Below are positions 6,953 to 63,225 of a DNA stretch of 64,000 nucleotides, piece by piece (position 1 is the first letter of the stretch; each line of letters starts with the position of its first letter). The notes beneath the pieces are model-generated. The model was not told the DNA's origin and did no database searches. It saw only the letters and a program-made list of their open reading frames with translations. The translations under genes were made by a program, and so were the position numbers. This DNA comes from an uncultured Gammaproteobacteria bacterium (GTDB taxonomy: Bacteria; Patescibacteriota; Patescibacteriia; Magasanikbacterales; UBA922): NCBI GenBank assembly GCA_965231005.1, contig OZ246405.1, positions 738,709-802,708 on the forward strand. The letters are read 5' to 3'.

Positions 6953-9196
6953 ATGAAAATATTACGAAAGTACAATCATCTTATATCGCTGTTGCTAGCG
7001 CTTGTTTCTCTCTATGGCCTATATATGGTCTTAGGGCCAGGGTCTCACCCTATTGTGGGCTGGCTATCTTTTTTTCTCTATATTGGCGTTGTTGGATATT
7101 GGTGGCAATGGATTTTTCATCGTATCTTTGGCATACATAGGGGTTCGCTTATTGGGAGAGCATACAGTTATATTTCTGCAATACTATTACTTGGATTTGT
7201 TACGTCTATATGGGTTGTGTGGTATAGGATTACCCCAGAGATCCTGTGGTGGAATTATACTGCGGTTGGATTTCTGAGTTATGGGTTGACCTATGTTTCT
7301 CGTTCTCTTAAGTCAAAAAAAATAAAAATAAAAAATACTCGTCCATATTTTACAGCAAACAATGGGTTAATACTCTTATATGTTGTTTCTTGGATTATTG
7401 GGATGTACCTTCTCTTTTCTTCAAAGAGTGGCGAGATTCTTTTTTCTCCATGGCAAACAATTTCGTCTTGGTTTTTCTTAATATACTTCTTTGCTTTTTT
7501 CTTACTGGGTATTATCATTTGTTCTCGTCATAAAAAGATTGTTATTTTAGGACTCCTCATATTTCATTCTTTTCTTATCCACGCGTATCTTCCACTTTCA
7601 CACACACAACCGTGGGGTGGTGATGTCTGGCGTATTATTGCTGCAGAAGAACAGTTATCAAACGGCGAGGCAATACTTCCTGTTATTGCAGGTCCTGAAA
7701 TGAAAACGCGTCCACTCTTTGGTATGGATGTGCCAGAAGCACTCTTGATTCCACATAAATATACATATGGACATCTTTGGGGAACGTCTATCCTTTTTGA
7801 AAAAACACTGCAGGTTGATTTGAAAACAATCAACATATGGCTTGTTCCACTGTTGTGGACCTTAGCTATACCAATTATTTTTTATAGAATAGGAATTCTC
7901 TTATTTCATTCAGAACGGCGTGCGTTAACATTGGTGTGGTTAAGTAGTATTCCATTTTCCTTGCAAGCACTTGGCGCATTAACACTCCCAGTGAGCTTGG
8001 GGTATATTGTTTTCTTTTTTGTGCTTAGTTTGCTTATACAATATATCCAAGAAGAAAAGCCATGGCAACGAAATGTTGTATTGTTGTTTTCTTTTCTCAT
8101 GTTTTTTGGCTATGCACTTCACGCGATACTTATATGGGTGAGTATGTTGTGTAGTTTCTTATTCATATTTCTTGCAAAACAATCATTTATAATGAAGCTA
8201 AGTAGAAAAGTGTCATGGAAGCGGATTGTCCGAGGTATTTTTACAATATTGGCAATTGGTATTATTCCTGTGATTGAATATGTTTCAATTGGCAAGGCAT
8301 ATCTTTCATCTGATATTATTGCTCGAATCAAACAAATGATAGGGCAATTGAGTGGATGGTTTTATGCTAGTATGATTCGTCCTCATGATATTGTGAGTGG
8401 AAATATTATTTTCAATCATACACCTGATTATGCATTCGTTGGAAATATATTTTCAACCATTCGTTTCCACGTTCCATTTTTCATGGTATTGATTTGGATA
8501 CTATTCATGTGTGCATGGGTTTATTGGTTTGCACATACAGAAAAAAAACAGTGGCATGTATTTGCATGCCTTTCTAGCACAGTAGTTGGTGGATATATTA
8601 TTGGCTGGTTTGTACTCGAAGGTGACCGATTATTTACTCGGCGATTAGATACAATGATATCTTTTCTTCTTATTATTGCTGCAATATATACTGCAAAAAA
8701 ATATAGAGGACATCTTAAAAAATATTTTTCACCCCTAACGGTTCTTATTAGTATTTTTCTTTTGAGTTGGTTTGGAACAACGACATTTGCTTCAGGGCCT
8801 GACTTGCGTGTGATAAGTAATGATGAATATCATATGGCATCATTTGTTTCTTCACAGATAGATCAACATGCATCACATCATTGTATTCTTGCTGATTCGT
8901 GGTTGCTGTTGTCAGTAGAAGCACTTACACATGGAAGAATCGTTGGAGGTGGTTTTCCAATTGATTATCAATTTGGTCAACCAGAGTTAACAAAGCTGTA
9001 TTCATCATTTCCTGATAATCCAGAACAGACTGTGCAAGATATGGCATTGGTAACACAGTCAGATAGTTGTATTGTAGTACTTGCAGGATTATCGCCAGAA
9101 AAAAAGGAAAAGATAAGTGATTTTGTGGGTGAATCCATTGGGTCATTTGGAGAAACGATTGCATGGAATATGGACTTGAAAAAACCAAGTGAGTAG
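6953..9196 (+). CDS. polytopic membrane protein (multi-TM) with a C-terminal soluble domain; putative GT-C-type glycosyltransferase, divergent from its neighbour
   Basis: A 747-aa protein with many hydrophobic segments and a hydrophilic C-terminal ~200 aa. It is divergently transcribed from the similar-architecture gene at 4832..6913. Confidence 0.4.
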   Translation: MKILRKYNHLISLLLALVSLYGLYMVLGPGSHPIVGWLSFFLYIGVVGYWWQWIFHRIFGIHRGSLIGRAYSYISAILLLGFVTSIWVVWYRITPEILWWNYTAVGFLSYGLTYVSRSLKSKKIKIKNTRPYFTANNGLILLYVVSWIIGMYLLFSSKSGEILFSPWQTISSWFFLIYFFAFFLLGIIICSRHKKIVILGLLIFHSFLIHAYLPLSHTQPWGGDVWRIIAAEEQLSNGEAILPVIAGPEMKTRPLFGMDVPEALLIPHKYTYGHLWGTSILFEKTLQVDLKTINIWLVPLLWTLAIPIIFYRIGILLFHSERRALTLVWLSSIPFSLQALGALTLPVSLGYIVFFFVLSLLIQYIQEEKPWQRNVVLLFSFLMFFGYALHAILIWVSMLCSFLFIFLAKQSFIMKLSRKVSWKRIVRGIFTILAIGIIPVIEYVSIGKAYLSSDIIARIKQMIGQLSGWFYASMIRPHDIVSGNIIFNHTPDYAFVGNIFSTIRFHVPFFMVLIWILFMCAWVYWFAHTEKKQWHVFACLSSTVVGGYIIGWFVLEGDRLFTRRLDTMISFLLIIAAIYTAKKYRGHLKKYFSPLTVLISIFLLSWFGTTTFASGPDLRVISNDEYHMASFVSSQIDQHASHHCILADSWLLLSVEALTHGRIVGGGFPIDYQFGQPELTKLYSSFPDNPEQTVQDMALVTQSDSCIVVLAGLSPEKKEKISDFVGESIGSFGETIAWNMDLKKPSE

Positions 9197-9638: not shown

Positions 9639-10238
9639 ATGCCAAAACAATTGAAAAAGATTTCTGAAGAAGTAGTTCATGAGAATCCTTGGTTTTTATA
9701 CAAGCATGATAAATATGAACTTCCCGAAGGTGGAGAGGGTGATTATTATTATGCTGAAACAAATGGCGCTGCTATTGTCGTCCCTGTCCGAGAAGATGGA
9801 AGAATTGTTCTGGTTGTGCAGAGTCGTTATCTGGCTGAAAAACAAAGTATTGAATTTCCTGCAGGGTCGGTTCTCCATGGAATGGAGATCGTAGATACAG
9901 CTCGGGCAGAACTGCGAGAAGAAACAGGTTGGGAAGCAGATGAGATGCAAAAGATAGGTGTGTTTGCAGAGTCCAATTGTTATATAAAAGGAATGCAACA
10001 TGTGTTTCTTACCAATGTTACTGAGCAACATCAGCAAGATCCAGAACCAGGTGAAGACATTGAAGTTATCTATAGAAGACCAGATGAGATTGTTGATATG
10101 ATTGAACGAGGTGATATTTGGTGTGGAAATACACTTGCTGCATGGGCACTCGCACAAAATTATTTTTTGTCTCGAGGATCTTCAGAAGCTGCCCCAAAAT
10201 TTAATGCATTATTTAAATTTTTCTTAGGAGAAGAATAG
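9639..10238 (+). CDS. NUDIX hydrolase (ADP-ribose pyrophosphatase-like)
   Basis: A Nudix box GX5EX7REUXEEXGU is present (ELREETGWEAD). The start was trimmed to the ATG at 9639, one nt after the HIT stop. Confidence 0.8.
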   Translation: MPKQLKKISEEVVHENPWFLYKHDKYELPEGGEGDYYYAETNGAAIVVPVREDGRIVLVVQSRYLAEKQSIEFPAGSVLHGMEIVDTARAELREETGWEADEMQKIGVFAESNCYIKGMQHVFLTNVTEQHQQDPEPGEDIEVIYRRPDEIVDMIERGDIWCGNTLAAWALAQNYFLSRGSSEAAPKFNALFKFFLGEE

Positions 10239-10242
10239 ATAT

Positions 10243-10683
10243 ATGGTGTACAAAAAAGAAGACGAACGCGTAAGCGTATCAGTTGGTGCAATTGTTTTGA
10301 ACAAAGATGGACACGTTCTTTTATCAAAAAGAGCAAAAGATCCATTTCGAGGTGCGTGGGTATTGCCGAGTGGCTTTCTTCAAACACATGAGAGAACAGA
10401 AGAAGGGGTTGTCAGAGAGGTATATGAAGAAACAGGATTAAAGATAACATTGGATCGTTTATATGGTGTGTATTCTACCCCTGGTCGAGATCCACGGTCA
10501 CACGTAGTATCACCATACTACGTTGCTCATGTTGATAGTGGAAGTATTATTAATACCATAGAAGCAAAGGATTCAGATTTTTTTCCTCTAGACAAATTGC
10601 CAAAAGGAGAGTACGCTTTTGACCATGAACAGATTCTCAAAGATTTTGTGTCATCACCAGAAAAACAACCATTTTCTCCATAA
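10243..10683 (+). CDS. NUDIX hydrolase
   Basis: The motif GAWVLPSGFLQTHERTEEGVVREVYEETGLKI is a Nudix box. Confidence 0.8.
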   Translation: MVYKKEDERVSVSVGAIVLNKDGHVLLSKRAKDPFRGAWVLPSGFLQTHERTEEGVVREVYEETGLKITLDRLYGVYSTPGRDPRSHVVSPYYVAHVDSGSIINTIEAKDSDFFPLDKLPKGEYAFDHEQILKDFVSSPEKQPFSP

Positions 10684-10694
10684 TCCTATGGCAT

Positions 10695-11096
10695 ATGGAA
10701 ACTGCAAAACAAACACTTTTTATTCAACAGTTTCCTTTTGAACGCGATATTAGAGAAGATGCAAGAGCATTAGAAACCGCCAAAGTGGGGGATGTCCATA
10801 TTTCTCGGATAGAAATAAAACCGCAAGCAATCATTGGCAATCTTTATTACAACACAACAGATGTTATTTTTTTTCTGGAGAGTGGAAGTCTACGAATGAA
10901 ATTTTTTCAAATTCATACACACGAAGAAAAAGAAGTCATATATAATCCAGGGGACGGCATTATTCATTTGCCAGCGCAAGTTGCATTTGCATTTTCAAAT
11001 ATATATGATGTATCTGCAGTATTAATTATGTTTTCAAATAAGTCTCTTCAGTCTGACGATGATACATCGTTTCCACTGTATACAACAGGAATTTAA
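10695..11096 (+). CDS. small cupin-like protein, possibly a WxcM/FdtA-like sugar ketoisomerase
   Basis: A 133-aa beta-rich protein whose ...FPFERD... segment is reminiscent of WxcM-like domains. It lies directly upstream of rfbB. The assignment is weak. Confidence 0.3.
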
Positions 11097-11107
11097 CTAA
11101 TGTATTT

Positions 11108-12112
11108 ATGAAGTTACTAGTAACGGGTGGTGCAGGATTTATAGGATCAAATTTTATTCGATATTATTTACAGAATCACGCAGATGATTCTATTATTAAT
11201 GTTGACATACTTACCTATGCTGGAAATTTGGAAAATCTAAAGGATATAAAAGATGATCCAAGATATTCTTTTGTAAAAGCAGATATTTGTGACAAAGAAA
11301 CAATAGAAGACCTTGTCAAAGATGTTGACATAATTGTTCATTTTGCAGCAGAGAGTCATGTTGACCGATCAATTATGGATCCAGGTGCATTTATACGAAC
11401 AAATGTATTAGGGACACAAGTATTATTAGATGCTGTAAAAAAGTACAAAAAAAGGTTTCACCATGTTTCAACGGACGAAGTGTTTGGTGCATTAGGACCA
11501 CATGATCCACCATTTGACGAACAAACACCGTATGATCCAAAAAGTCCTTATTCAGCTTCCAAAGCAGCTTCAGATCATCTTGTTCGTGCGTATCATCATA
11601 CGTATGGATTAGAAATAACAATTTCTAATTGTTCGAACAACTATGGTCCATATCATTTTCCAGAAAAAATAATTCCGCTTTTCATTTCAAATCTTATGGA
11701 AGGAAAATCAGTTCCTGTGTATGGAGACGGTGGACAGATTCGTGACTGGATTTATGTTGATGATCATAGCCGTGGTATTGATATGATTTTGCAAAAAGGA
11801 AAAAGTGGTGAAACATATTGTCTTGGTGGGGGAAACCAACCTACAAATCTTGAGTTAACAAAGAAACTTATTCATCTTCTTGATCGTGATGAATCGTTCA
11901 TTGAATTTGTAAAAGATCGTCCTGGACATGATCGTCGGTACGATGTAGACTACAGCAAGGCAAAACATGAGCTTGGATGGGAGCCACAAGTTTCTCTTGA
12001 CGAAGGATTGAAAAAGACAGTTGATTGGTACAAAGAACATCAAGAATGGGTTGCTCGCTGCAAGAGTGGTGAATATATGAAATACTACGATGAGTGGTAT
12101 GGCCGTACGTAA
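11108..12112 (+). CDS. rfbB: dTDP-glucose 4,6-dehydratase
   Basis: The N-terminus [16 protein letters not shown], the catalytic YxxxK (YSASKAASD) and [11 protein letters not shown] match RmlB. Confidence 0.9.
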
Positions 12113-32231: not shown

Positions 32232-34220
32232 ATGTTAGTGACTCTTGCCCTTGTGCCAGCAATTCTGGCAATTATCTACGGCATTTTCTTAATGCAGTGG
32301 ATTAAAAAACTACCTGCAGGTTCAGACCGTATGCAGGCTATTGCTCGAGCTATCGAAGAAGGAGCTCGTGCATATTTGAAAAGACAGTACCAGACTATCT
32401 CTATAGTCGGAATTATTGTCTTTGCATTTTTATGGTATTTCTTTAATTTAAATACAGGAATTGGTTTTCTTGTTGGAGCAGTATTCTCAGGACTTTCTGG
32501 CTATCTAGGGATGATTATCTCTGTAAAAGCAAATGTCCGAACAACAGAAGCTGCAAAAACAGGGTTGAAAAAAGCACTTGATGTGGCAGTAAAAGGTGGA
32601 TCAGTAACAGGTCTTCTTGTTGTTGGTCTTGGCCTTCTTGCTGTTGCAGGGTTTTATATGATCTTCAACGATGTTGATGCACTTATTGGTCTTGCATTTG
32701 GTGGAAGTTTGATTTCTATTTTTGCAAGAATCGGTGGTGGAATTTTCACAAAGGCTGCAGACGTTGGAGCAGACTTGGTTGGAAAAGTTGAAGCTGGTAT
32801 TCCAGAAGATGATCCAAGAAATCCAGCAGTTATTGCTGACAATGTTGGTGATAATGTTGGTGACTGTGCAGGAATGGCAGCAGACCTCTTTGAAACATAT
32901 GCGGTTACTGCTGTTGCTACTATGGTTCTTGGGTATTTAACATTTGAAAATAAAGAGGCAGCAATTGCATTCCCACTTCTTATTGGTGGTGTATCAATCA
33001 TTGCTTCAATTCTTGGAACATTCTTTATTAAGCTTGGAAAAGGAAAAAAGAACATCATGGGGGCATTATATAAGGGGCTTGTCGTGGCATCACTTCTTTC
33101 ACTAGTTGGTATTTATTTTATCAGCGGTGAGTACTCATCAGAACTTGGTGTAAGTACAAACGCACTATTCTTAAGTGCATTCGTAGGAATTCTCCTAACT
33201 GGACTCATGGTTTGGATTACAGAATACTACACATCTACAGAACATAAGCCTGTTAAAGCAATTGCAAAAGCAAGTAGTACTGGACATGGAACAAACGTGA
33301 TTGCAGGACTAGCTGTTTCTATGAAAGCAACAGCATGGCCTGTCTTATTCATTGTTGCTGCAGTTCTTGTCACATTTAGCATGGCAGGACTTTATGGTGT
33401 AGCAATCGCAGCTATGGCAATGCTTTCACTTACAGGTATTATTGTTGCCATTGATGCCTATGGGCCAATTACAGATAATGCTGGTGGAATTGCAGAAATG
33501 AGTGAACTAGATGCAGATGTTCGAAATACAACTGACAAACTTGATGCAGTTGGAAATACAACAAAGGCAGTTACAAAAGGATATGCAATTGCTAGTGCAG
33601 GATTAGCTGCGCTTGTGCTATTTGCAGATTACACACACAAACTTTCAGATTATGGTATGGCAAGTGTATTTAAGATCGATGACCCAAATGTTCTTGCAGG
33701 ATTGTTTATTGGTGGTCTTATGCCATACTTATTTGGTGCATACCTTATGGAATCAGTTGGAAAGGTTGCAGGAGATGTTGTTCGTGAAGTTCGAAGACAG
33801 TTTAAGAGCATAAAAGGAATTATGGATGGTTCTGGCAAGCCAGACTATGCAAAATGTGTTGACATTGTTACAAAAGGTGCAATTGGTCAAATGATTTTAC
33901 CAGCACTTATTCCAATTGTTGTTCCTGTTGCTGTTGGTCTTATTCTTGGAGCAGAAGCACTTGGTGGACTCCTTGTAGGAACAATTGTTACTGGACTATT
34001 TGTAGCAATTTCAATGACAGCTGGTGGTGGTGCATGGGACAATGCAAAGAAATATATTGAAGATGGTCATCATGGTGGAAAAGGAAGCAATGCACATGCT
34101 GCAGCAGTGACAGGAGATACTGTTGGTGATCCATACAAAGACACTGCAGGTCCTGCTGTAAACCCTATGATTAAGGTTGCAAATATTGTTGCACTCCTTA
34201 TTGTTGGAATGCTCAAATAA
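32232..34220 (+). CDS. hppA: membrane-bound proton/sodium-translocating pyrophosphatase
   Basis: Canonical H+-PPase motifs are present: [30 protein letters not shown] and the N-terminal ...[21 protein letters not shown]. The start was trimmed from 32073 to the ATG at 32232 ([12 protein letters not shown]), matching H+-PPase N-termini. Confidence 0.9.
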
Positions 34221-34241
34221 GTAGAATTCAAAAAACAAAAA

Positions 34242-34265
34242 ATCCTCCGGTTGGAGGATTTTTTT
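34242..34265. terminator. bidirectional terminator between hppA and the convergent permease gene
   Basis: ATCCTCC-ggtt-GGAGGAT has an A-run on the 5' side and a T-run on the 3' side. Confidence 0.6.
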
Positions 34266-34385
34266 ATACCCTCGTTTCATCTTAATTACTATTTAAGAAG
34301 AAACGAGGGTAGGCAAGGACTGCACGTACCCAAGCGGTATAGTCTGTGGCTTCCAACCACGACTTTTCCGGTGTTTTGTGTCTTT

Positions 34386-35777
34386 CTACAGGATGTGACT
34401 CAGGATGCTGACGTACGCCATTCCCATGAGCATAAGCACGATGCCGATGCCAAACGCGTGGCGCATCCAGTCGAAGAACGAGATTTTGGTCCCGTGCTTT
34501 CCCATGATCACGACAATGACGATGTTCGAAGCTGTTCCGATGATGGTGTGAACACCACCGGTCAGGCTTGCCCATGCCACTGAGATCTGCTGGAGCAGGT
34601 CGTTCTGTGTGATAGCTTCTTTGCCGAGTTCGAAAACAGCAAGTGCATTGTCTGCAAAAGCGCTAAATCCGTGTGTCGTGGCATACTCAGAAATTGCTCT
34701 GAATGCTCGCTGTGGAGGGAGCATGGTGCCAAAGGCCTGAATGGCCATATAGCACATACCACCCATGAACATAAGCGCAATGAGGAATCCACTGACAAGT
34801 CCACTCTCAATAGCTTCGCCAAACACATGCGTGACTGGATTTTTCTGTCCAGGCTGAGTTTTGCGAACTTCAGGGCGCAGTGCATGAAGAAAGTTGATGG
34901 GGAAGCAGACAGCAAAGACGACGATCATTCCAAGAATGGACTTTTCACCACCAAGCATGTCTGCGAAGACACCAAAGTAGAGAACTCCAGCCCAAAGCAC
35001 CAGATTGACCCAGTCAATGGCCCAAAAGGGTTTTGTCTCAATCTTTGGCGAGTTTTCGCAGTTGTCAGCAGTCTTGTATGCCCACCAGCCAGTAACCAGA
35101 AGACTTGCCAGGACGATCGGTCCGAGGTATCTGAGTGTATCCCAGGTTGTCCAGCCAAACATGCCTGCAGCAATCACAATGCTTGGTGCAGCAAAGTTGG
35201 TCAGACCACCGCCAACCCCGATTCCAACACCATGCAGGACGCCGAGTTTCTTCTTGGTTTCTTCGGTCTGGTTTGCGTTGACTTGTGCAAAGCCGCCTGT
35301 TGATGCGGCAGCAGCAGCTACCTCAGAAATGACTGATGCCAGTCCACCAACGAGGATCATGACCATGGCACTAAACTTTCGTTCATCTCCCCCTGCGAGA
35401 TGCTGGAGGAATGCAACCATGTGATTCACGAAACGCTTGAGCTGCAAAGAGGTGAACATGAGCGTTCCAACCAATATTGCAGCGTGCATGTCGATGTGAT
35501 GGCTTACGCTGTTAATGACTTCTTGAGCTCCGCCGCTTCGGGTGAACGAGACCCACATGAACACGGCACCGATGATGATGAGGACTTCTGTCTTTGTCGC
35601 GACCTCGATGAGGGACATTGCTTTGCCGTTGAGAAAGCCGAGCACATATCCGTTGTTTTTGCCGTTTCCATTGCCTCCGAGTTGGATCAAGCGTCTTGCG
35701 AGACTTTGTCCGACAGCTGCGAGCAACAGAAAAAAGGCCAAAATGCCCAGGTTCTGCCAATCGAGTGGTGACATCAT
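34386..35777 (-). CDS. ArsB/NhaD/CitMHS-superfamily ion permease (putative Na+/H+ antiporter or anion transporter); GC-rich, probably horizontally acquired
   Basis: A ~460-aa polytopic protein with two repeated halves and glycine-rich hairpin-like segments (GVGIGVGGGLTNFAAPSIV). The track start at 35849 is TTG and was trimmed to the ATG at 35777 (MMSPLDWQ). Coding GC is ~52%, against a ~36% background. Confidence 0.6.
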   Translation of the reverse strand: MMSPLDWQNLGILAFFLLLAAVGQSLARRLIQLGGNGNGKNNGYVLGFLNGKAMSLIEVATKTEVLIIIGAVFMWVSFTRSGGAQEVINSVSHHIDMHAAILVGTLMFTSLQLKRFVNHMVAFLQHLAGGDERKFSAMVMILVGGLASVISEVAAAAASTGGFAQVNANQTEETKKKLGVLHGVGIGVGGGLTNFAAPSIVIAAGMFGWTTWDTLRYLGPIVLASLLVTGWWAYKTADNCENSPKIETKPFWAIDWVNLVLWAGVLYFGVFADMLGGEKSILGMIVVFAVCFPINFLHALRPEVRKTQPGQKNPVTHVFGEAIESGLVSGFLIALMFMGGMCYMAIQAFGTMLPPQRAFRAISEYATTHGFSAFADNALAVFELGKEAITQNDLLQQISVAWASLTGGVHTIIGTASNIVIVVIMGKHGTKISFFDWMRHAFGIGIVLMLMGMAYVSILSHIL

Positions 35778-36090
35778 GCCTACCTCCTCTGTTTGGGGTT
35801 TTGCGTTTATCCTATAGAGGAAATCTATAGAGATCAGTGAAAATACCAAACGTTGATAGACTCACTGACCTCTATAGGTTTATCCTTGCCTTGTAATGAA
35901 CAGGTATTCCAAGACAATATGTCCTTGAATACACCTACCGTACAAGAAAGGTACGGCAATGCAAAATGGTAGCATATTTTTTTCTTTCCGTCAATACTGT
36001 TTTTATTTTTTTGGCTTAATATTGACAAATTAGCAATTTATCCGTATAATCTACACTACTTGAACTATTTATTCCTCTAGACATATCCAC

Positions 36091-40434: not shown

Positions 40435-41019
40435 CTAGTCGCCTTTCCATCCTTCTACATTTGCAGCGATCAGTGCAAAGGATATGCCGAATGCTCCTGC
40501 CCCGAGCTTTTCAAGTTGTTCGAACATAGGATGTGATCTGATCATCATGTATAGGACCAGCAAGATCATCAGTGCACTGGGTGCCATGAAAAGACCGTCG
40601 TAGCCATCTTCATGCACTCCTTTGCTTTCTGCATCACCAACGCCCTCGTAGTAGACGATCGGATCTTTGAACGAGTCATCCACATCTGTTCTCACAACGA
40701 TCAAAGACATCATTTCTTCCAGTGGAAAGTAGTTGTGCTCAAGCAACCGGGTCAATGCTTCGGTGAGAGCCTCTCGTCCGCTGTCAGACAGTCCTTGAAT
40801 GTACTCTCGAAGTTCTTTGCGTAGCGTAGCGTCTGGCTTCAGGTTCACCACACCACCGAGTGGTCCATATTCAGACACTCGAATGTGTCGATTCCTAATG
40901 CCAGTCAACGCATGCTCACCAAATGCCTTCATTCCTGAGATTGCGAAGAGCGGCGCCAAAGCCATCTTTCCGAGATTCATATTGCCCCCTTGTGGAAGTG
41001 TTTGTTCGGAGTCTAGCAT
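40435..41019 (-). CDS. hypothetical protein (194 aa) with C-terminal hydrophobic segments; GC-rich (~48-50%)
   Basis: A clean ORF whose codon usage is distinct from its neighbours. No motif is recognised. Confidence 0.4.
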   Translation of the reverse strand: MLDSEQTLPQGGNMNLGKMALAPLFAISGMKAFGEHALTGIRNRHIRVSEYGPLGGVVNLKPDATLRKELREYIQGLSDSGREALTEALTRLLEHNYFPLEEMMSLIVVRTDVDDSFKDPIVYYEGVGDAESKGVHEDGYDGLFMAPSALMILLVLYMMIRSHPMFEQLEKLGAGAFGISFALIAANVEGWKGD

Positions 41020-57972: not shown

Positions 57973-58389
57973 TTATATGTTAGATAATGATTTGAGATAG
58001 TCATCAATAACGATTTTAACATTTGGTGCGCAGTCTTCAGGAAGGTTGTGAATGTCAAACCAACCCCATTCTACAACATCATCACCAATTGAAATTTCTC
58101 CGGTTCTTTTTGCTAGAAAATGAATAAGAATGGTATATCTGGTATCATCCTCAACCCGTTTCATCATGAGTGGTCGGAGTGGGCGTAATATTTCAACATC
58201 AATATTTAATTCTTCCTTTGCTTCTCGTATACAAACGTCTTCAAATGTTCCATTAAAATCTTCCATTTTTCCACCAGGAAAGAACCATGGGGTTATACCA
58301 AAATCTTTTTCTTCTTTATCAAGTAAAACCTTACCATCTTCAATGATTACAGGTCCACAGGCAATAATTGTATTTGGGGGAAGAGTCAT
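57973..58389 (-). CDS. NUDIX hydrolase
   Basis: Nudix box GGKMEDFNGTFEDVCIREAKEELNI. Confidence 0.8.
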   Translation of the reverse strand: MTLPPNTIIACGPVIIEDGKVLLDKEEKDFGITPWFFPGGKMEDFNGTFEDVCIREAKEELNIDVEILRPLRPLMMKRVEDDTRYTILIHFLAKRTGEISIGDDVVEWGWFDIHNLPEDCAPNVKIVIDDYLKSLSNI

Positions 58390-58539
58390 ATGTTATAAAA
58401 TTATGATACTAGGATAGCATACCGGGAGGTCGTCATCAAGACGTGGAATCAAACAAAAAACAGGCCTAGTAGACTTGTTTTTTTGGTTGATATTTGTGTT
58501 TATCTCAGAGTATATCTCTTTTTGCAAAAGAAATATGCT

Positions 58540-58578
58540 CCGAGCCCCGACCGAACGTTGTTCAGTCAGGGCCCTCGG
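58540..58578 (-). terminator. conserved 3' hairpin of cassette A (paralog at 59233..59269)
   Basis: CCGAGCCCCGAC...GTCAGGGCCCTCGG imperfect long stem immediately after the stop codon. Confidence 0.45.
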
Positions 58579-58594
58579 TTGAAGATTGAATTCG

Positions 58595-59029
58595 CTACTT
58601 CGCGTCGGGCATGTCGAAGTCGTCGTGTCCGGCGTGGACGTCCTTCATGTGGTAGATCTTGACGATGCATTTGCCACCGCAGTCGAAGGTGTCGCCATTG
58701 CCGACGTAGGAAACGCTGTGTCCGTCCGGGTTGGAGTTGCCCACCTGGAAACCGTGGGCCAGCCCCTTGGTCGTGGTCTTGACGGTGACCTTCGGGCAGC
58801 TGCTGTACGCGGCGACGAACGACGTTCGGCCCTGCGCCTTCTTCTCCAGCTTCTGCACGTTGTACGTACAGTCGCTCTGGAGGAAGACGGCATGGATGTC
58901 GTCGATGTCCATGTAGACGACGCTGGTGGTGGCCTTGCTGGTCTTGTTGTCGGGCTTGTCCTCGTCCGGAAGGATGGCGATGAGGATGGCTGCGAAGATC
59001 ACGAAAATGCCGATAGTTCTGCTATCCAT
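58595..59029 (-). CDS. cassette A: small secreted Cys-containing protein (144 aa, signal peptide, 4 Cys); GC-rich
   Basis: The minus-strand ORF has a signal peptide (MDSRTIGIFVIFAAILIAIL), a Shine-Dalgarno GAGGTG upstream and balanced composition. The overlapping plus-strand ORF is V/G/D/A-rich junk. Confidence 0.6.
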   Translation of the reverse strand: MDSRTIGIFVIFAAILIAILPDEDKPDNKTSKATTSVVYMDIDDIHAVFLQSDCTYNVQKLEKKAQGRTSFVAAYSSCPKVTVKTTTKGLAHGFQVGNSNPDGHSVSYVGNGDTFDCGGKCIVKIYHMKDVHAGHDDFDMPDAK

Positions 59030-59064
59030 GTAGCACCTCGAAAGAACAGACCTTTGCGGCCTGG

Positions 59065-59147
59065 GTAGTTGAATTCAAAAGGAACCGAGGTCAGCGCATG
59101 GCGCCAAGTCCCGGTAGAGGGATCCAGCGCACGATTGCTAACTGAGT
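59065..59147 (-). promoter_or_regulatory. conserved ~85-nt upstream leader module of cassette A (paralogous copy at 59971..60053)
   Basis: The two copies have 2 mismatches over ~85 nt, and each lies 35-45 nt upstream of its ATG. The module contains the GCGC-atg-GCGC hairpin and GAATTC / GGATCC palindromes. Confidence 0.55.
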
Positions 59148-59232
59148 GCAAGACACAGTATGTCTTTTGCTCAACTAACAATTAGCTGTATTTTCTCACG
59201 GTATACTTCCTTTCTTTGAAGGAAACATGCCA

Positions 59233-59269
59233 CGAGCCCCGACTGAACGTTGTCCAGTCGGGGCCTCGG
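59233..59269 (-). terminator. conserved 3' hairpin of cassette B
   Basis: CGAGCCCCGACTG-aacgttgtc-CAGTCGGGGCCTCG, a 13-14-bp stem. Confidence 0.45.
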
Positions 59270-59285
59270 TTAAAGGTTGAATTGA

Positions 59286-59924
59286 CTACCAGCGGCCGTC
59301 GATCTGATACACGCACTCGTCAGTCTCGCACGTGAGGTTCGTCGTGAGCTGAGTAGGTCGGATGCTGATCTCCTTGCCGTTGTGGAGCAGGCGGACGTCG
59401 CCAGGAACACGATCTTTGTCTAGGTTCTTGAACGTGACGCTGTCACAGTTCGGGAACGAAAGAGGTCGGTTGCCCCAGTAACTCCAGACGCTTGCGGAAA
59501 ACTCGCAGACCTTCGAAACGCGGACGGGGTAAGGGCTGTTCCACAGTGCTTCGTCAGAGCTCTTGATGCTGTGAACGACGCAATAGCCGAGGCACGTGTA
59601 CCGGCCTTTCCCGGTTTGGTCCACGTACTTGGCATCCTGTTCCGGAACCTCGGGATGGTAGAGGCTGATCGTGAAGTTCAAGCGAACATCCTGCGCATCC
59701 AGCGTCAGGCTGTCGCATCCCGGGAATCGGGCCGAACGCTCAGCGCCGTAGCGGTGTTGGAATTTGACGATGTCCAGCGTGCACTTGTGGACCTCTGGGT
59801 GGTACGTGAGGACCGGTTCGATCGGCTTCGAGTAATCGAACTTGATCGGTTCCGGCGCCGAATCGTCGCACGCAACGAGGTTGAGGACAAAGATGGACGC
59901 AAGGGACAAAAGGAAAATACGCAT
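59286..59924 (-). CDS. cassette B: secreted lipoprotein-like Cys-rich protein (212 aa, lipobox LVAC, 9 Cys, internally duplicated ~70-aa module)
   Basis: ORF with signal peptide MRIFLLSLASIFVLNLVAC; an SD GGAG upstream; it precedes the same conserved leader as cassette A. Confidence 0.6.
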   Translation of the reverse strand: MRIFLLSLASIFVLNLVACDDSAPEPIKFDYSKPIEPVLTYHPEVHKCTLDIVKFQHRYGAERSARFPGCDSLTLDAQDVRLNFTISLYHPEVPEQDAKYVDQTGKGRYTCLGYCVVHSIKSSDEALWNSPYPVRVSKVCEFSASVWSYWGNRPLSFPNCDSVTFKNLDKDRVPGDVRLLHNGKEISIRPTQLTTNLTCETDECVYQIDGRW

Positions 59925-59970
59925 GATAGCGCTCCAGATTGGGGCGGCCGTTCAAAGGGTGGGGCCGGCT

Positions 59971-60053
59971 GTAGTTGAATTCAAAAGGAACCGAGGTCAG
60001 CGCATGGCGCCAAGTCCCGGTAGGGGGATCCAGCGCACGTTTGCTAACTGAGT
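59971..60053 (-). promoter_or_regulatory. conserved upstream leader module of cassette B (copy of 59065..59147)
   Basis: Near-identical to leader A. Confidence 0.55.
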
Positions 60054-60129
60054 TCAGAAGAAATTCTTCTCTGCTCAATCAACAATTTTTTTGACTCGTT
60101 AAAGCTTTTTCAATTAATGTTTTAAAAAA

Positions 60130-60216
60130 CAATTAACAATTAACAACTAACAAACTTTCTTTCACTATTCTTTGATTCAAAGAGTTGTTATTTGTTTCTT
60201 GTTAATTGTTATTTGT
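60130..60216. repeat. MITE-like element, copy 2 (short form) inside the GC-rich cassette island
   Basis: CAATTAACAATTAACAACTAACAAAC ... TTCAAAGAGTTGTTATTTGTTTCTTGTTAATTGTTATTTGTT shares its termini and the internal TTCAAAGAG core with copy 1. Confidence 0.45.
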
Positions 60217-60266
60217 TCAGCAGTTTCTTTCTCTTCAGTATAGCACTGAAAAGAAGAAAACTGCAC

Positions 60267-60297
60267 GCCCGACGGTTTTGGATATTATCCGTCGGGC
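60267..60297 (-). terminator. conserved 3' hairpin of cassette C (GCCCGACGG-loop-CCGTCGGGC)
   Basis: A 9-bp GC stem with the same stem sequence as in cassette D but an unrelated loop; preceded by the shared (ACT)GCACG motif. Confidence 0.45.
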
Positions 60298-60321
60298 AGC
60301 AGGTTCGGTGTAGGGTGCCGA

Positions 60322-60441
60322 TCAGGCGAACGCGCCGCTGTTGATGAGCGGGCAGATGAGCGTTGCGGCCAACGTGCACGCTGCCAGGAACGTGATGAAG
60401 TTGGAGGAAACGTACTCGGTGGGGAAACAGCTCGGGATCAT
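60322..60441 (-). CDS. cassette C: 39-aa hydrophobic single-TM peptide (MIPSCFPTEYVSSNFITFLAACTLAATLICPLINSGAFA); not in the ORF track
   Basis: Hand translation. Its start context CATGGAAAGCTCC is identical to that of the cassette D gene, and it sits between a conserved 3' hairpin and a conserved ~250-nt leader. Coordinates are approximate to within 3 nt. Confidence 0.4.
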   Translation of the reverse strand: MIPSCFPTEYVSSNFITFLAACTLAATLICPLINSGAFA

Positions 60442-60690
60442 GGAAAGCTCCAATGTGCCGACCCAACATGGGCGGGCGAGGGAAAATGGTCTCGTGGACC
60501 AGGTTGTGGTCGCACGAGTCGACCGGGGAACAAGAGTCTCTAAGAAGAACCTTGTATCCCGGTCGAACTAACCTTGAAGCTGAACCTACACTGTAATGAA
60601 CCTGCGAGTGGATGAATCTGTATCTCAGAAGTTGAGTTATTGATTACTTATCTCACTCGTACATAGATGGCATTTATTCTATATACCAGT
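60442..60690 (-). promoter_or_regulatory. conserved ~250-nt 5' leader of cassette C (paralogous to 61000..61250), with a long imperfect hairpin
   Basis: About 85-90% identical to leader D by eye. It contains TCGACCGGGGAACAAG...CTTGTATCCCGGTCGA stem arms and TATATA at its distal end. Confidence 0.5.
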
Positions 60691-60753
60691 AGATAAGTTT
60701 TGTTTTGAACAGTTCTTCTCTCCTCAATTAAGAAGAGAAGAGAAGGACTGCAC

Positions 60754-60785
60754 GCCCGACGGAAATATGGAAGTTCCCGTCGGGC
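60754..60785 (-). terminator. conserved 3' hairpin of cassette D (GCCCGACGG-loop-CCGTCGGGC)
   Basis: As for cassette C. Confidence 0.45.
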
Positions 60786-60810
60786 AGCAGGTTCGGTCGT
60801 GTAGGAGTTG

Positions 60811-60999
60811 TTACTTGCTGGCGAGCTGGATCGGCGCATCGCTCGTGTCCACGTGGATGTGGACCGTACCGAGATCGATGCCGCGCTCGAGCTTGCTGCG
60901 CGAGCTGTTGATGGACAGCTGGCAAGCGCTCAGGACGCAGACGATGATCGCGGTCACGATGATGCCGAAAACGGTGCTCTTGAAGTTGACAGTACGCAT
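60811..60999 (-). CDS. cassette D: 62-aa small lipoprotein-like or TM peptide (MRTVNFKSTVFGIIVTAIIVCVLSAC...)
   Basis: ORF in the track; N-terminal hydrophobic helix with an LSAC lipobox-like motif; conserved leader upstream and conserved hairpin downstream. Confidence 0.5.
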   Translation of the reverse strand: MRTVNFKSTVFGIIVTAIIVCVLSACQLSINSSRSKLERGIDLGTVHIHVDTSDAPIQLASK

Positions 61000-61250
61000 G
61001 GAAAGCTCCAGAAGTGCCGACCCAACGTGGGCGGGCGAAAAGGCGGTCTCGTGGACCAGGTTGTGGTCGCACGAGTCGACCGGGGAACAAGAGTCTCTGT
61101 TAAGATCCTTGTACCCTGGTCGAAAAACCTTTGGAGTTTCTGTACCTACACTGTAATGAACCTGTGAGGAGATGAATCTGTATCTCAGTAATGAGATGTG
61201 GACTACTTATCTCACTCATACATAGATGGCATTGATTTCTATATATAAGG
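61000..61250 (-). promoter_or_regulatory. conserved ~250-nt 5' leader of cassette D
   Basis: Same organisation as leader C. Its stem arms TCGACCGGGGAACAAG...CTTGTACCCTGGTCGA carry compensatory differences relative to copy C. Confidence 0.5.
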
Positions 61251-61530
61251 GGACAAGCTTTTGAAGAGGAATAACTGTGGGTTTTTGTGTCTATATATGT
61301 TATAGATTTTTAAACTCTTTGTTATTTTTGAACAGCATAGTATAACACAAAAAAAGGATCTTGTCAAGCCCCTTGCGAAATAATTTGGCTTAAATAAGGT
61401 AATAAATAAAAAAATGGCTTTGTTAAGCCAAGTGAAATTTTACTAAATAAAGGTATAAGATTGCCGCGGTCCCTTTCGACTTAGGCAGGCTCAGGGTCCC
61501 TCGCAATGACAGTAAAGTCAAATTTGTTTT

Positions 61531-63225
61531 TTAAGCCTTTTTGCCTTTTAGCTTTTTAAGCCTTTTAATCATATATGTTCCAATCTTTCTATATCCTAAT
61601 TTTCTATAATATCCACGTACTCCAACACCAGAAATAACAGCAATTTTATTACCTTTTTTTGCTTTTACAAGGTTTTCAGCTTCCTTCATAAGCCTTTTTC
61701 CTACCCCTTTATGCTGAGAAGCTAGTTCATTTCTTTTTCCAATTGAAACAAGCGTTCCATATACATGAAGTTCTCTGACAAAAGCAGCTTTTTTGATTTC
61801 AGGTATGAGTTTAATTAGATCCTTGTTTTGATCAGAAGAGGGTATTCGTAGGCGTAAGAATCCGTAAACAGCTATTCTTTCTTTATCTTCTAGACTTAAG
61901 AAATATTCTGTCCCACCAATTGTCTCATATTCATCAATAAATAACTGTGGTTCTTCATTGGCATCCATAATATCTTTTTGACGTCCAATTTCTCTACAAC
62001 GAAGACAAACACATTTTTTGCCTTGTTCTTTTAGTTCTTTTGACAAATCTTCTCGAAGGTTTGTAATAGTATTTCCAGCATAGATTTCATTTGAAGGAAT
62101 ATCTCTGATCAATCTAGAAATTCTGCAATAACGTGGTGTAGCAAGTTTCATTGCAAGAAGTGCACGAAACAATCCTTCATCACCATATGGCTTGTATCGA
62201 CCATCTTTCCACCACTGATATAATTCTGCAGATTTAATAACAGTATTTGGATAAATTTTAATCATATCAGGACAAAGTCCAGGATCAGAAAAAATTGTTT
62301 TGTACATTTCAATATCATGTTCAGGAGAACTTCCTGGAAGATCTGGCATGAAATGAAGGTCAACCTTAAATCCAGCACTGCGCAAAAGTAGCATTGCATC
62401 TCGAAATTGCTGTACAGTGTGTCCTCGTTGAATCAATTCAAGGATGTTGTCATCTGGAGCTTGTAGTCCAAGTTCAATTCTTGTGCACCCTTGTTTTCTC
62501 ATGTGCTGAATTGTTTTTGGAGTTATTGCGTCCGGGCGAGTTTCAAGAGTTATACCAATAATTCTATATCCTGCTGTTTCATTGTATGTTTGTTCTTGTT
62601 CAAGTTCCTTTTGAATTTGTTCAAGAGTCTTTTTGGCACACTCTTCTTCAGTCTGTTCTGGAACCTCTTTTCTTCTTGTTAAATTATTGCAGGCTTTAAA
62701 TGATTCCAAGAGAAACCAATATTGATATTTAATAGGGTAAGCATTCCATGTTCCACCTTTAATGATATATTCAATCTTGTCAGCATTGTGGCCATTGCGT
62801 TCAAGCATTTGAATACGACGCTGCATTTGCGTGTAAGGCGAAAAATTGAGGCGTAAGGCTCTTGCAGCTGCTGGTTCGCTTGCAATATAGCTTTTTGGCA
62901 TTCGAACCTCTGTAGGGCAATATACGCATTTTCCAGGACAGGCATATGGCTTGACCAAGGATGTGATAATAGATACCCCAGAAAGACTTCGAATACTTGC
63001 CTTGAGCATGAATGATTCAAAGAGTTTGCTTTTAGGCACTCTTTTCTTTTTTACTAAATTTTGATAGGCTGATATAAGTTCTCTGTTTGCAGGCTTACTG
63101 ATTTTAAGAGAACCACAAACTTTTTGTGCTGCATCATTAAACTCATCCCTTGTTTTAGGATGAAGATCAACGATGCCCAGGACAATCGTTTCAAGTAATT
63201 TGTTATCAAGTTTGTTTGTAAACAT
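61531..63225 (-). CDS. elp3: Elp3-family tRNA uridine(34) carboxymethyl/acetyl-transferase (radical SAM + GNAT)
   Basis: The radical SAM CxxxCxxC (CPGKCVYCP), an Elp3-type N-terminus and a C-terminal GNAT acetyltransferase region at 564 aa. Confidence 0.85.
   Translation of the reverse strand: MFTNKLDNKLLETIVLGIVDLHPKTRDEFNDAAQKVCGSLKISKPANRELISAYQNLVKKKRVPKSKLFESFMLKASIRSLSGVSIITSLVKPYACPGKCVYCPTEVRMPKSYIASEPAAARALRLNFSPYTQMQRRIQMLERNGHNADKIEYIIKGGTWNAYPIKYQYWFLLESFKACNNLTRRKEVPEQTEEECAKKTLEQIQKELEQEQTYNETAGYRIIGITLETRPDAITPKTIQHMRKQGCTRIELGLQAPDDNILELIQRGHTVQQFRDAMLLLRSAGFKVDLHFMPDLPGSSPEHDIEMYKTIFSDPGLCPDMIKIYPNTVIKSAELYQWWKDGRYKPYGDEGLFRALLAMKLATPRYCRISRLIRDIPSNEIYAGNTITNLREDLSKELKEQGKKCVCLRCREIGRQKDIMDANEEPQLFIDEYETIGGTEYFLSLEDKERIAVYGFLRLRIPSSDQNKDLIKLIPEIKKAAFVRELHVYGTLVSIGKRNELASQHKGVGKRLMKEAENLVKAKKGNKIAVISGVGVRGYYRKLGYRKIGTYMIKRLKKLKGKKA

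Follow-up and report, generated by a model that had tools for sequence, protein, structure and literature searches.

Two small-peptide cassettes on mRNAs predicted to fold like type I toxin messages, in an Elp3–NUDIX island of a Magasanikbacteria-like bacterium

Small hydrophobic peptides encoded behind long folded leaders raise the question of whether they are part of a toxin–antitoxin (TA) system of type I. The locus considered here lies in a 64,000-nt stretch of contig OZ246405.1 (hereafter the window), whose GC content is about 35%. Four GC-rich minus-strand units, cassettes A–D, occupy the region between 58.5 and 61.3 kb, and the last two of them, C and D, had been likened to type I TA loci in a reading of the sequence alone (the original prediction). 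What that reading stated about the sequence itself is confirmed throughout, with one qualification on the long hairpin given below. The resemblance of the C and D mRNAs to type I toxin messages is real and stronger than that prediction knew, and membership in this class does not follow from it; the proposal is thereby supported in part. The explanation favored here, with evenly balanced confidence, places C and D together with A and B in a 2.7-kb island of foreign character between an Elp3-like gene and a NUDIX gene, where each of the four would be a self-contained cassette for an exported envelope protein, and holds that the C and D mRNAs are locked in the manner of hok and aapA1.

The minus-strand open reading frames (ORFs) C (60322–60441; 39 aa, MIPSCFPTEYVSSNFITFLAACTLAATLICPLINSGAFA) and D (60811–60999; 62 aa) are genuine coding frames. 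GC contents at the first, second and third codon positions are 0.51/0.37/0.89 in ORF A, 0.55/0.41/0.76 in ORF B, 0.38/0.55/0.88 in ORF C and 0.49/0.41/0.87 in ORF D, compared with 0.49–0.58/0.36–0.37/0.23 in host genes, and cytosine occupies 47–62% of the third codon positions in the cassette ORFs versus 12% in host genes. The period-3 GC signal starts and stops with the ORFs and is phased on their third positions (shuffle p ≤ 5e-5; for ORF C, p = 5e-5). An antisense frame has these third positions as well, but none of the frames on the plus strand agrees between C and D. In addition, ORFs C and D have the same ATG, located 6 nt past the same GGAG. Because of the period-3 signal, the codon usage and the shared ATG and Shine-Dalgarno (SD) sequence of the minus-strand ORFs, the view that they are artefacts of GC-rich DNA, which had been named as an alternative at the outset, is rejected. 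The other alternative named there, that the leaders are protein-coding, is rejected as well: the plus-strand frame shared by the two leaders has three synonymous versus eight non-synonymous changes, and frame-breaking indels occur upstream.

A hydrophobic segment stands at the start of all four ORFs. In peptide C it spans residues 15–33, and the length and hydrophobic nature of this 39-aa peptide agree with the original prediction (best 15-residue hydropathy window at residues 15–29, 2.24). Peptide C has one charged residue in total and no Lys or Arg in the n-region, and its lipobox-like LAAC, with Cys22, fits the core pattern of PROSITE PS51257 (SSNFITFLAAC). The full PS51257 rule consists of {DERK}(6)-[LIVMFWSTAG](2)-[LIVMFYSTAGCQ]-[AGS]-C with the Cys at positions 15–35 and a Lys or Arg in the first seven residues. 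Peptide D conforms to this rule in full (TAIIVCVLSAC, Cys26, two Lys/Arg residues), having Arg2 and Lys7, a hydrophobic stretch at residues 9–25 and then the lipobox LSAC ending at Cys26, so its predicted lipoprotein-type N-terminus is upheld. Beyond Cys26 the predicted mature part is polar and has 37 residues. Peptide D, as a lipoprotein precursor, would be lipid-modified at Cys26 to give a 37-residue lipopeptide, and C might be a membrane-inserted 39-mer or, if processed at Cys22, an 18-residue lipopeptide. The two peptides have no significant similarity to each other.

Surface, host-contact or lytic roles may be envisaged for these peptides, the last by formal analogy only to entericidin and the colicin-release lipoproteins. 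Entericidin A/B and the colicin lysis (bacteriocin release) proteins are small bacteriolytic or envelope lipoproteins. Like them, D is a precursor of about 60 aa whose lipobox ends in ..LSAC, with Q as the next residue, and whose mature part is short and polar, and C and D, like ecnAB, are two small envelope-peptide genes in tandem. Unlike them, C has no charged n-region, the carrier is a bacterium of the candidate phyla radiation (CPR), and neither C nor D has a match to Pfam Entericidin or Lysis_col at E ≤ 10.

While the peptides are unrelated, the regions flanking them are conserved. The likeness of C and D spans the AT-rich head, the leader of about 250 nt and the ATG, and it resumes 5–8 nt past the stop codon and continues through the terminator hairpin. 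The upstream regions, previously put at about 85–90% identity, are 85.3% identical when 252 nt are compared and 84.0% identical over 268 nt, with one identical block of 54 nt, and the identical start context (CATGGAAAGCTCCA; GGAG-CUUUCC-AUG on the mRNA strand) extends over 14 nt. In each minus-strand leader, an AT-rich 5′ part (D, 61153–61262, 36% GC; C, 60593–60700, 34% GC) with the same two predicted hairpins is followed by a GC-rich 3′ domain (D, 61000–61152, 56% GC; C, 60442–60592). The whole leaders of C and D fold at −93.9 and −93.8 kcal/mol, with z-scores of −5.8 and −6.1 relative to shuffled sequences.

The long hairpin that had been noticed in both leaders (hairpin 1; 60519–60566 in C and 61076–61123 in D) is far more stable than its shuffles (z −5.2 to −5.8) and equally stable on either strand. 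The differences between its copies had been called structure-preserving. They consist of two one-sided changes, which read as G-C↔G-U exchanges on the plus strand and as A·C mismatches on the mRNA strand.

The best sigma-70-like promoter match upstream of D is predicted at 61339–61367 on the minus strand (TTGACA-17-TATACT with TG, an 11/12 match), about 75 nt upstream of the start of the C/D similarity, and a weaker TTCAAA-N16-18-TATA(T/G)A is common to the conserved part of both leaders. A six-codon mini-ORF, ATG CCA TCT ATG TA(C/T) GAG TGA (MPSMYE), lies in the AT-rich 5′ end of both leaders (60656–60676 and 61212–61232, minus strand) with one synonymous difference; it begins about 7 nt past the TATATA box and could be leaderless, or may be due to chance.

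In both copies, the SD is predicted to be hidden by the GC-rich 3′ domain. The consensus fold of this domain comprises 46 pairs; its closing helix, in which UGGAG pairs with an anti-SD that reads CUUCA in C and CUCCA in D, encloses three hairpins. On the minus strand, the anti-SD, hairpin 2, hairpin 3 and the SD GGAG are located at 60576–60579, 60491–60518, 60457–60477 and 60448–60451 in C, and at 61133–61136, 61048–61075, 61016–61036 and 61006–61009 in D, the anti-SD being about 125 nt upstream of GGAG. Partition-function calculations, the folding check proposed earlier, were positive in silico: GGAG is paired in the closing helix with the same partner in both copies (P = 0.96 in C and P = 0.99 in D). 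In controls with shuffled upstream sequences, the mean unpaired probability of the SD was 0.22, and 3–4 of 100 shuffles were equally closed. One consensus pair, located in the anti-SD helix, is changed on one side; this U-G↔C-G exchange agrees with the mRNA strand. The anti-SD substitution and those in hairpin 1 point to opposite strands, each resting on single substitutions.

In all four full transcripts (A–D), the minimum-free-energy structure also contains a long-range helix that joins the leader to the first nucleotides past the stop codon and brackets the SD–ORF unit. In C, the 5′ arm (60585–60605, minus strand; GCAGGUUC..GUGUAGG) faces a 3′ arm (60299–60314, minus strand; CCUACAC.CGAACCUGC) located 7 nt past the stop codon, and the duplex energy of −25.5 kcal/mol is reached by 14 of 2000 shuffles. 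In D, the 5′ arm (61145–61163, minus strand; AGGUUC..GUGUAGG) faces a 3′ arm (60789–60805, minus strand; CCUACAC..GAACCU) beginning 5 nt past the stop codon, with a duplex energy of −21.2 kcal/mol reached by 20 of 2000 shuffles. The pairing common to both, GCAGGUUC..GUGUAGG with CCUACAC..GAACCUGC, comprises 15 bp in C and 13 bp in D. In A and B, ACCUCGGUU..UUGAAUUC..CUAC pairs with GUAG..GAAUUCAA..AACCGAGG, the terminator hairpin being nested within this pairing and a further helix lying beyond it. The duplex energies in the four cassettes are −25.5, −21.2, −21.4 and −18.8 kcal/mol, each equalled by about 1% of shuffled 3′ untranslated regions (UTRs), and the same measure in 25 host genes ranges from −3.7 to −13.2 kcal/mol. 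As the two cassette families, C/D and A/B, are unrelated in sequence, the brackets represent two independent occurrences. In C and D, the 5′ arm is about 145 nt upstream of the ATG, and the SD is covered not by the bracket but by the separate anti-SD.

The terminator hairpins of C and D were found as predicted, with the same 9-bp stem and different loops. In D, the hairpin (60754–60785, minus strand) has the stem GCCCGACGG/CCGTCGGGC (60754–60762/60777–60785) and is followed by GUGCAGUCCUU and a second, pyrimidine/purine hairpin reaching to about 60712; in C, the hairpin (60267–60297, minus strand; stem 60267–60275/60289–60297) is followed by a second long AT-rich hairpin.

The same design recurs next door in cassettes A (58525–59185) and B (59215–60090), both on the minus strand. 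Cassette A contains a leader (59065–59150), an ORF (58595–59029), a 3′UTR arm (58573–58597) and a terminator (58540–58575); in cassette B, the corresponding parts are located at 59971–60056, 59286–59924, 59264–59288 and 59232–59267. Protein A has 144 aa, an N-terminal membrane anchor and four Cys residues. Protein B has 212 aa, nine Cys residues and a lipobox-like LVAC, which fails the strict PS51257 core pattern (LNLVAC). The two proteins are 24% identical (E = 0.03) with four aligned Cys residues. Their leaders share an 86-nt block of 97% identity, and the 3′UTR and terminator are about 80% identical. The similarity breaks off at ..AACTAC and is restored from the stop codon GTAG onwards. The A/B repeats coincide with the borders of the conserved flanks and the variable ORF module. 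The first hairpin of the A/B leader differs at its apex between the copies yet stays paired, and differences in the A/B 3′UTR affect three of six unpaired versus 1 of 20 paired positions (Fisher p = 0.028).

The A/B leader is unlike the C/D leader in sequence, and the cassette architecture is alike: a promoter-like AT-rich head, a structured leader, a GGAG/GAGG SD, an ORF with high GC content at third codon positions (GC3), a short 3′UTR and a GC-rich terminator hairpin. Two UTR platforms are thus used, one by C and D and the other by A and B, with in-pair flanks 80–100% identical and the ORF replaced or diverged beyond recognition. To judge from sequence comparison, these sharp similarity breaks at the ORF limits suggest module replacement or homogenization of the flanks rather than simple divergence.

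In the mechanism favored here, the full-length mRNA would close on itself by pairing of the leader with the first nucleotides past the stop codon, with the ORF looped out, and in C and D the anti-SD about 125 nt upstream would pair with GGAG across the three-hairpin domain. From the predicted 5′–3′ closure and anti-SD pairing, the transcript would be compact, nuclease-resistant and translationally repressed until opened, for which 3′ trimming, temperature or a trans factor are candidates. The hok mRNA shows a 5′–3′ fold-back. In aapA1, a long-distance 5′–3′ interaction conceals the SD and keeps the full-length mRNA inert; trimming of the 3′ end activates the message, which is then captured by a cis-antisense RNA (PMC5416894). 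C and D resemble hok/sok and aapA1/IsoA1 in having a hydrophobic ORF of less than 65 aa, a long, stably folded mRNA, an SD hidden in the full-length transcript and tandem copies, and aapA1 in particular in the long-distance 5′–3′ interaction (PMC5416894). At the folding level, these models suggest that the C and D messages probably work like type I toxin mRNAs.

Ordinary bacterial mRNAs can also pair their 5′UTR with their 3′UTR, examples being icaR in Staphylococcus aureus and hbs in Bacillus subtilis. As in those mRNAs, a 3′UTR segment just past the stop codon of C and D pairs with the leader, with a predicted effect on translation and/or stability; the differences are that the C/D pairing leaves the SD to a separate anti-SD, and that the pairing recurs in two unrelated neighboring sequence families.

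The host is a Magasanikbacteria-like CPR bacterium: the relatives found through the Elp3-like neighbor are Candidatus Magasanikbacteria and other Patescibacteria, with at most 71% identity. In relatives the Elp3–NUDIX–SHMT gene order is kept, and the Elp3|NUDIX gap is 32–189 nt in loci L015, L018, L020 and L022. As the gap is about 3.1 kb in this genome, the island is regarded as an insertion. In other relatives, the junction is enlarged by 0.8–8 kb (loci L004–L025 were compared), and unrelated GC-rich, SD-bearing small-ORF cassettes occupy it in L005 (11700–12715), L009 (11716–12500) and L012 (11660–12030). This comparison of loci marks the Elp3|NUDIX junction as a hotspot of repeated insertion. 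Bracketing helices are also present in both L005 cassettes.

The initiation signals also set the cassettes apart. GGAG or GAGG stands 6–7 nt before the ATG in four of four cassettes, whereas among host genes an SD precedes the annotated start in 1 of 35, and a lenient test allowing any in-frame start raises this to 6 of 47, against a background rate of about 4% per 12-nt window. GGAG, GAGG or GGAGG is likewise found 5–7 nt before the ATG in A–D and in the junction cassettes of L005, L009 and L012 taken together. In both codon usage and initiation signal, the cassettes depart from the host and thus have, at the level of sequence, a foreign character. The signals of origin are nevertheless mixed, in that the ORFs, SDs and hairpins look foreign and the AT-rich heads and one spacer look host-like.

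Several points weigh against the favored explanation. All the structures are thermodynamic predictions, from two copies per cassette family in one genome. In the covariation check that had been proposed, 0 of 46 consensus pairs are changed on both sides between the two copies. A search of the window and 22 loci of relatives with a covariance model built on the 3′ leader domain of C and D (scoring 188 bits in C and 193 bits in D) added no copies beyond these two, returning otherwise only their own hairpin on the other strand. The bracket complementarity was noticed first and tested afterwards; neither L009 cassette has a bracket helix, and a generic upstream/downstream duplex test with 60-nt flanks gave no discrimination, being dominated by terminators and length. 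As the host is apparently without SD-led initiation, SD sequestration may not matter in this cell, and expression of the cassettes may be poor or absent. Both the AT-rich cassette heads (34–36% GC) and the spacer of 23% GC that separates cassettes B and C are unlike the DNA of a high-GC donor. Finally, the A–D proteins are ORFans from which no function can be transferred.

Some of these points would fit an alternative in which the island is inert passenger DNA, gained recently from an SD-using, high-GC3 source in which the cassettes were already duplicated, the leader similarity reflecting only this duplication history. Codon and SD usage wholly unlike the host, the insertion relative to relatives, the presence of isolated genes with GC3 of 0.88–0.98 in other Magasanikbacteria and the lack of leader homologues in relatives' loci are all compatible with it. 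However, four reading frames with export signals are intact, the flanks are kept at 80–100% identity while the ORFs differ, substitutions avoid paired positions, and the heads and spacers look host-like. Three other species moreover have similar SD-bearing GC-rich cassettes at this junction. As protein B matches nothing in sets of 5.8 billion proteins and 1.84 billion representatives and protein D nothing in the former, no donor can be named. Passenger DNA is thus considered an unlikely account of the island.

Somewhat less probable still is the original proposal in its full form, in which C and D would be type I TA modules with membrane-peptide toxins on self-locked mRNAs, the activated message being blocked by an unstable plus-strand (or nearby trans) RNA. 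The small, hydrophobic and truly coding ORFs, the strongly folded leader of about 250 nt with a predicted sequestered SD, the 5′–3′ interaction enclosing the ORF as in aapA1 (PMC5416894) and the tandem copies speak for this, as do the hairpin 1 substitutions, which read as G-C↔G-U on the plus strand only. The proposal falls short on the antisense gene, the toxin family and the conservation of the toxin. No plus-strand promoter or terminator was found in 58300–61600 at the tool threshold, and a scan relaxed to 8/12 gave one candidate, which lies at 61076–61106, in the hairpin 1 loop of cassette D, and is absent from C; both were consensus scans, and promoters of this lineage are uncharacterized. 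Neither C nor D matches a toxin family (Hok/Gef, Ldr, TisB, Fst, Ibs, ShoB and others) in Pfam or NCBIfam, and D conforms to the full lipoprotein rule. Tandem copies of known type I families keep the toxin sequence. Here, in the opposite manner, the UTRs are conserved while the two peptides are unrelated, D has no homologue in 5.8 billion proteins, and none was found in the loci of relatives. In contrast to hok/sok and aapA1/IsoA1, no mok-like overlapping ORF that could couple translation is conserved in the C/D leaders, where MPSMYE is the only shared ORF, and the locked-mRNA design is shared by A and B, which encode proteins of 144 and 212 aa. The anti-SD substitution, U-G↔C-G, favors the mRNA strand.

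Least probable is a role of the repeats at the DNA level, loosely analogous to pdif modules or to shufflon-like phase variation of surface proteins, in which the ORFs would be exchanged or inverted by recombination at the repeats on either side while the promoter/terminator platform stays fixed: paired-cassette similarity does break exactly at the ORF borders in C/D and A/B, the A/B repeats (palindrome TTGAATTCAA plus CTAC/GTAG) sit at those borders, flanks of 97% and 80% identity beside proteins of 24% are hard to obtain by point mutation alone, and different cassettes occupy the junction in different species, but no recombinase, transposase or integrase is present among the genes within ±8 kb of the island, which are housekeeping genes, the repeats are short and interrupted with G-U positions, the C/D 5′ arm lies about 145 nt upstream of the ATG and off the border, and three public contigs show one arrangement, 100% identical where they overlap the island.

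The favored explanation, locked cassettes for exported envelope proteins, may also be compared with known systems of variable genes. An integron gene cassette consists of a promoterless ORF with attC, with an integrase and attI nearby; each of A–D has its own promoter-like head, SD and terminator, and no recombinase is present among the neighbors scanned on both sides (attC cores were not formally searched, nor all 64 kb for integrases). Borrelia erp/ospEF and the Mycoplasma variable lipoproteins are surface lipoprotein families with conserved upstream and variable coding parts. The likeness to the former, with its 'upstream homology box', and to the latter lies in a near-identical promoter/5′ region before different exported or lipoprotein ORFs in tandem; the differences are that the signal peptides vary here, that the 3′UTR is conserved and complementary to the leader, and that codon and SD usage is foreign. 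The leader itself is an orphan structured 5′UTR without a known family: Rfam 15 returned only tRNAs for the window at the gathering threshold and, at E ≤ 10 in 58300–61600, only chance miRNA/snoRNA-like matches far below threshold. SD-occluding structured leaders and horizontally acquired surface-protein islands are both known kinds, and no demonstrably new system is at hand. A bolder extension, given little credence here, is that A–D and the analogous junction cassettes of other Magasanikbacteria form an undescribed class of 'bracketed' CPR cassettes, which would combine ORFan envelope or secreted peptides, foreign codon and SD signals and reusable pairing 5′/3′UTRs acting as panhandle-locked mRNAs or recombination sites, with C and D as hok-like locked membrane toxins or lysis peptides.

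If expressed, the cassettes would yield true micro-proteins exported by a CPR bacterium and missed by public annotation, antisense ORFs having been called instead. The combination of a hidden SD with 5′–3′ closure has been described chiefly for toxin messages, along with a small number of regulated genes, and C and D might thus provide a handle on post-transcriptional control in CPR bacteria, in which RNA regulation is barely known. The coexistence of a host without SD-led initiation and cassettes with canonical SDs and GC3 near 0.9 raises the questions of how and in which cell they are translated, and how episymbiotic CPR bacteria acquire and deploy surface proteins. Even if the cassettes are silent, the locus marks a recurrent insertion hotspot.

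Searches for homologues and families gave the following results. In Pfam and NCBIfam, nothing was found for C at E ≤ 10 and only a sub-threshold Phr_nterm for D, and Pfam, NCBIfam, PHROGs and PADLOC together contained no family match for A–D. A phage lysis cassette or a defence system is rejected, as PHROGs and PADLOC gave nothing significant. Searches by tblastn with B against plasmids and phages, with A against plasmids and with A–D against the loci of relatives found nothing, nor did blastn of the island against phages and plasmids. Exact 20–23-mers of the leader were absent from genome and viral contigs, and metagenome contigs gave only three chance matches of 23–24 nt in high-GC contigs. 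AlphaFold applied to B without an alignment gave an unusable model (predicted local distance difference test score, 48.8). Full-text literature searches on horizontal gene transfer and GC content in Magasanikbacteria, type I TA systems in Patescibacteria/CPR and GC-rich islands returned nothing relevant.

Public annotation of the locus is on the opposite strand. The island region is 100% identical in three public contigs carrying the Elp3 gene (two from ENA and one from Logan), each of which covers part or all of the island, and this identity argues against an assembly chimera. The genes called at the locus in the ENA contigs are antisense ORFs of 129, 135 and 147 aa; plus-strand antisense ORFs lie at 58586–59068, 59571–59978 and 60767–61156 of the window and at 8587–8976, 9765–10172 and 10675–11118 of ENA contig L001. 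For the two minus-strand ORFs that were looked up, B and D, there is no public record. The antisense ORF of 129 aa, searched in place of gene calls that would include the leader, had no match other than itself. Antisense gene calling may explain in part why the protein searches were empty.

Further features were noted in and around the island. An AT-rich inverted repeat of 30 nt with 87% complementarity (AAAAAACAATTAACAATTAACAACTAACAA/TTGTTATTTGTTTCTTGTTAATTGTTATTT) is located at 60124–60217, in the spacer that runs from the C terminator to the leader of B. At 61464–61510, directly downstream of the Elp3-like gene, there is a short GC-rich element (ATTGCCGCGGTCCCTTTCGACTTAGGCAGGCTCAGGGTCCCTCGCAATGAC), which is adjoined by a terminator-like hairpin at 61415–61430 and has no Rfam match. 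In related Magasanikbacteria, isolated genes with extreme GC3 were seen, namely a histidine-phosphatase-like ORF (0.88) and a 328-aa ORF (0.98), as well as a GC-elevated lipoprotein-like ORF (..FVGC); the unusual-GC genes of these relatives are located at L010 704–1366, L015 3224–4210 and L004 1813–2445. Elsewhere in the window, a putative Na+/H+ antiporter-like gene at 34386–35849 on the minus strand, with flanks at 34220–34390 and 35850–36030, has raised GC content (GC3 0.57). Its leader and the C/D leader have a 10-mer in common (GTTCATTACA), which is not significant, and its 3′ flank shares with cassette D the sequence GTGCAGTCCTT followed by a pyrimidine-rich hairpin, 0.16 chance matches being expected. 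Another gene that may have been acquired is a 194-aa ORF at 40435–41019 on the minus strand (GC3 0.50), for which Pfam, NCBIfam, PHROGs and PADLOC gave no match.

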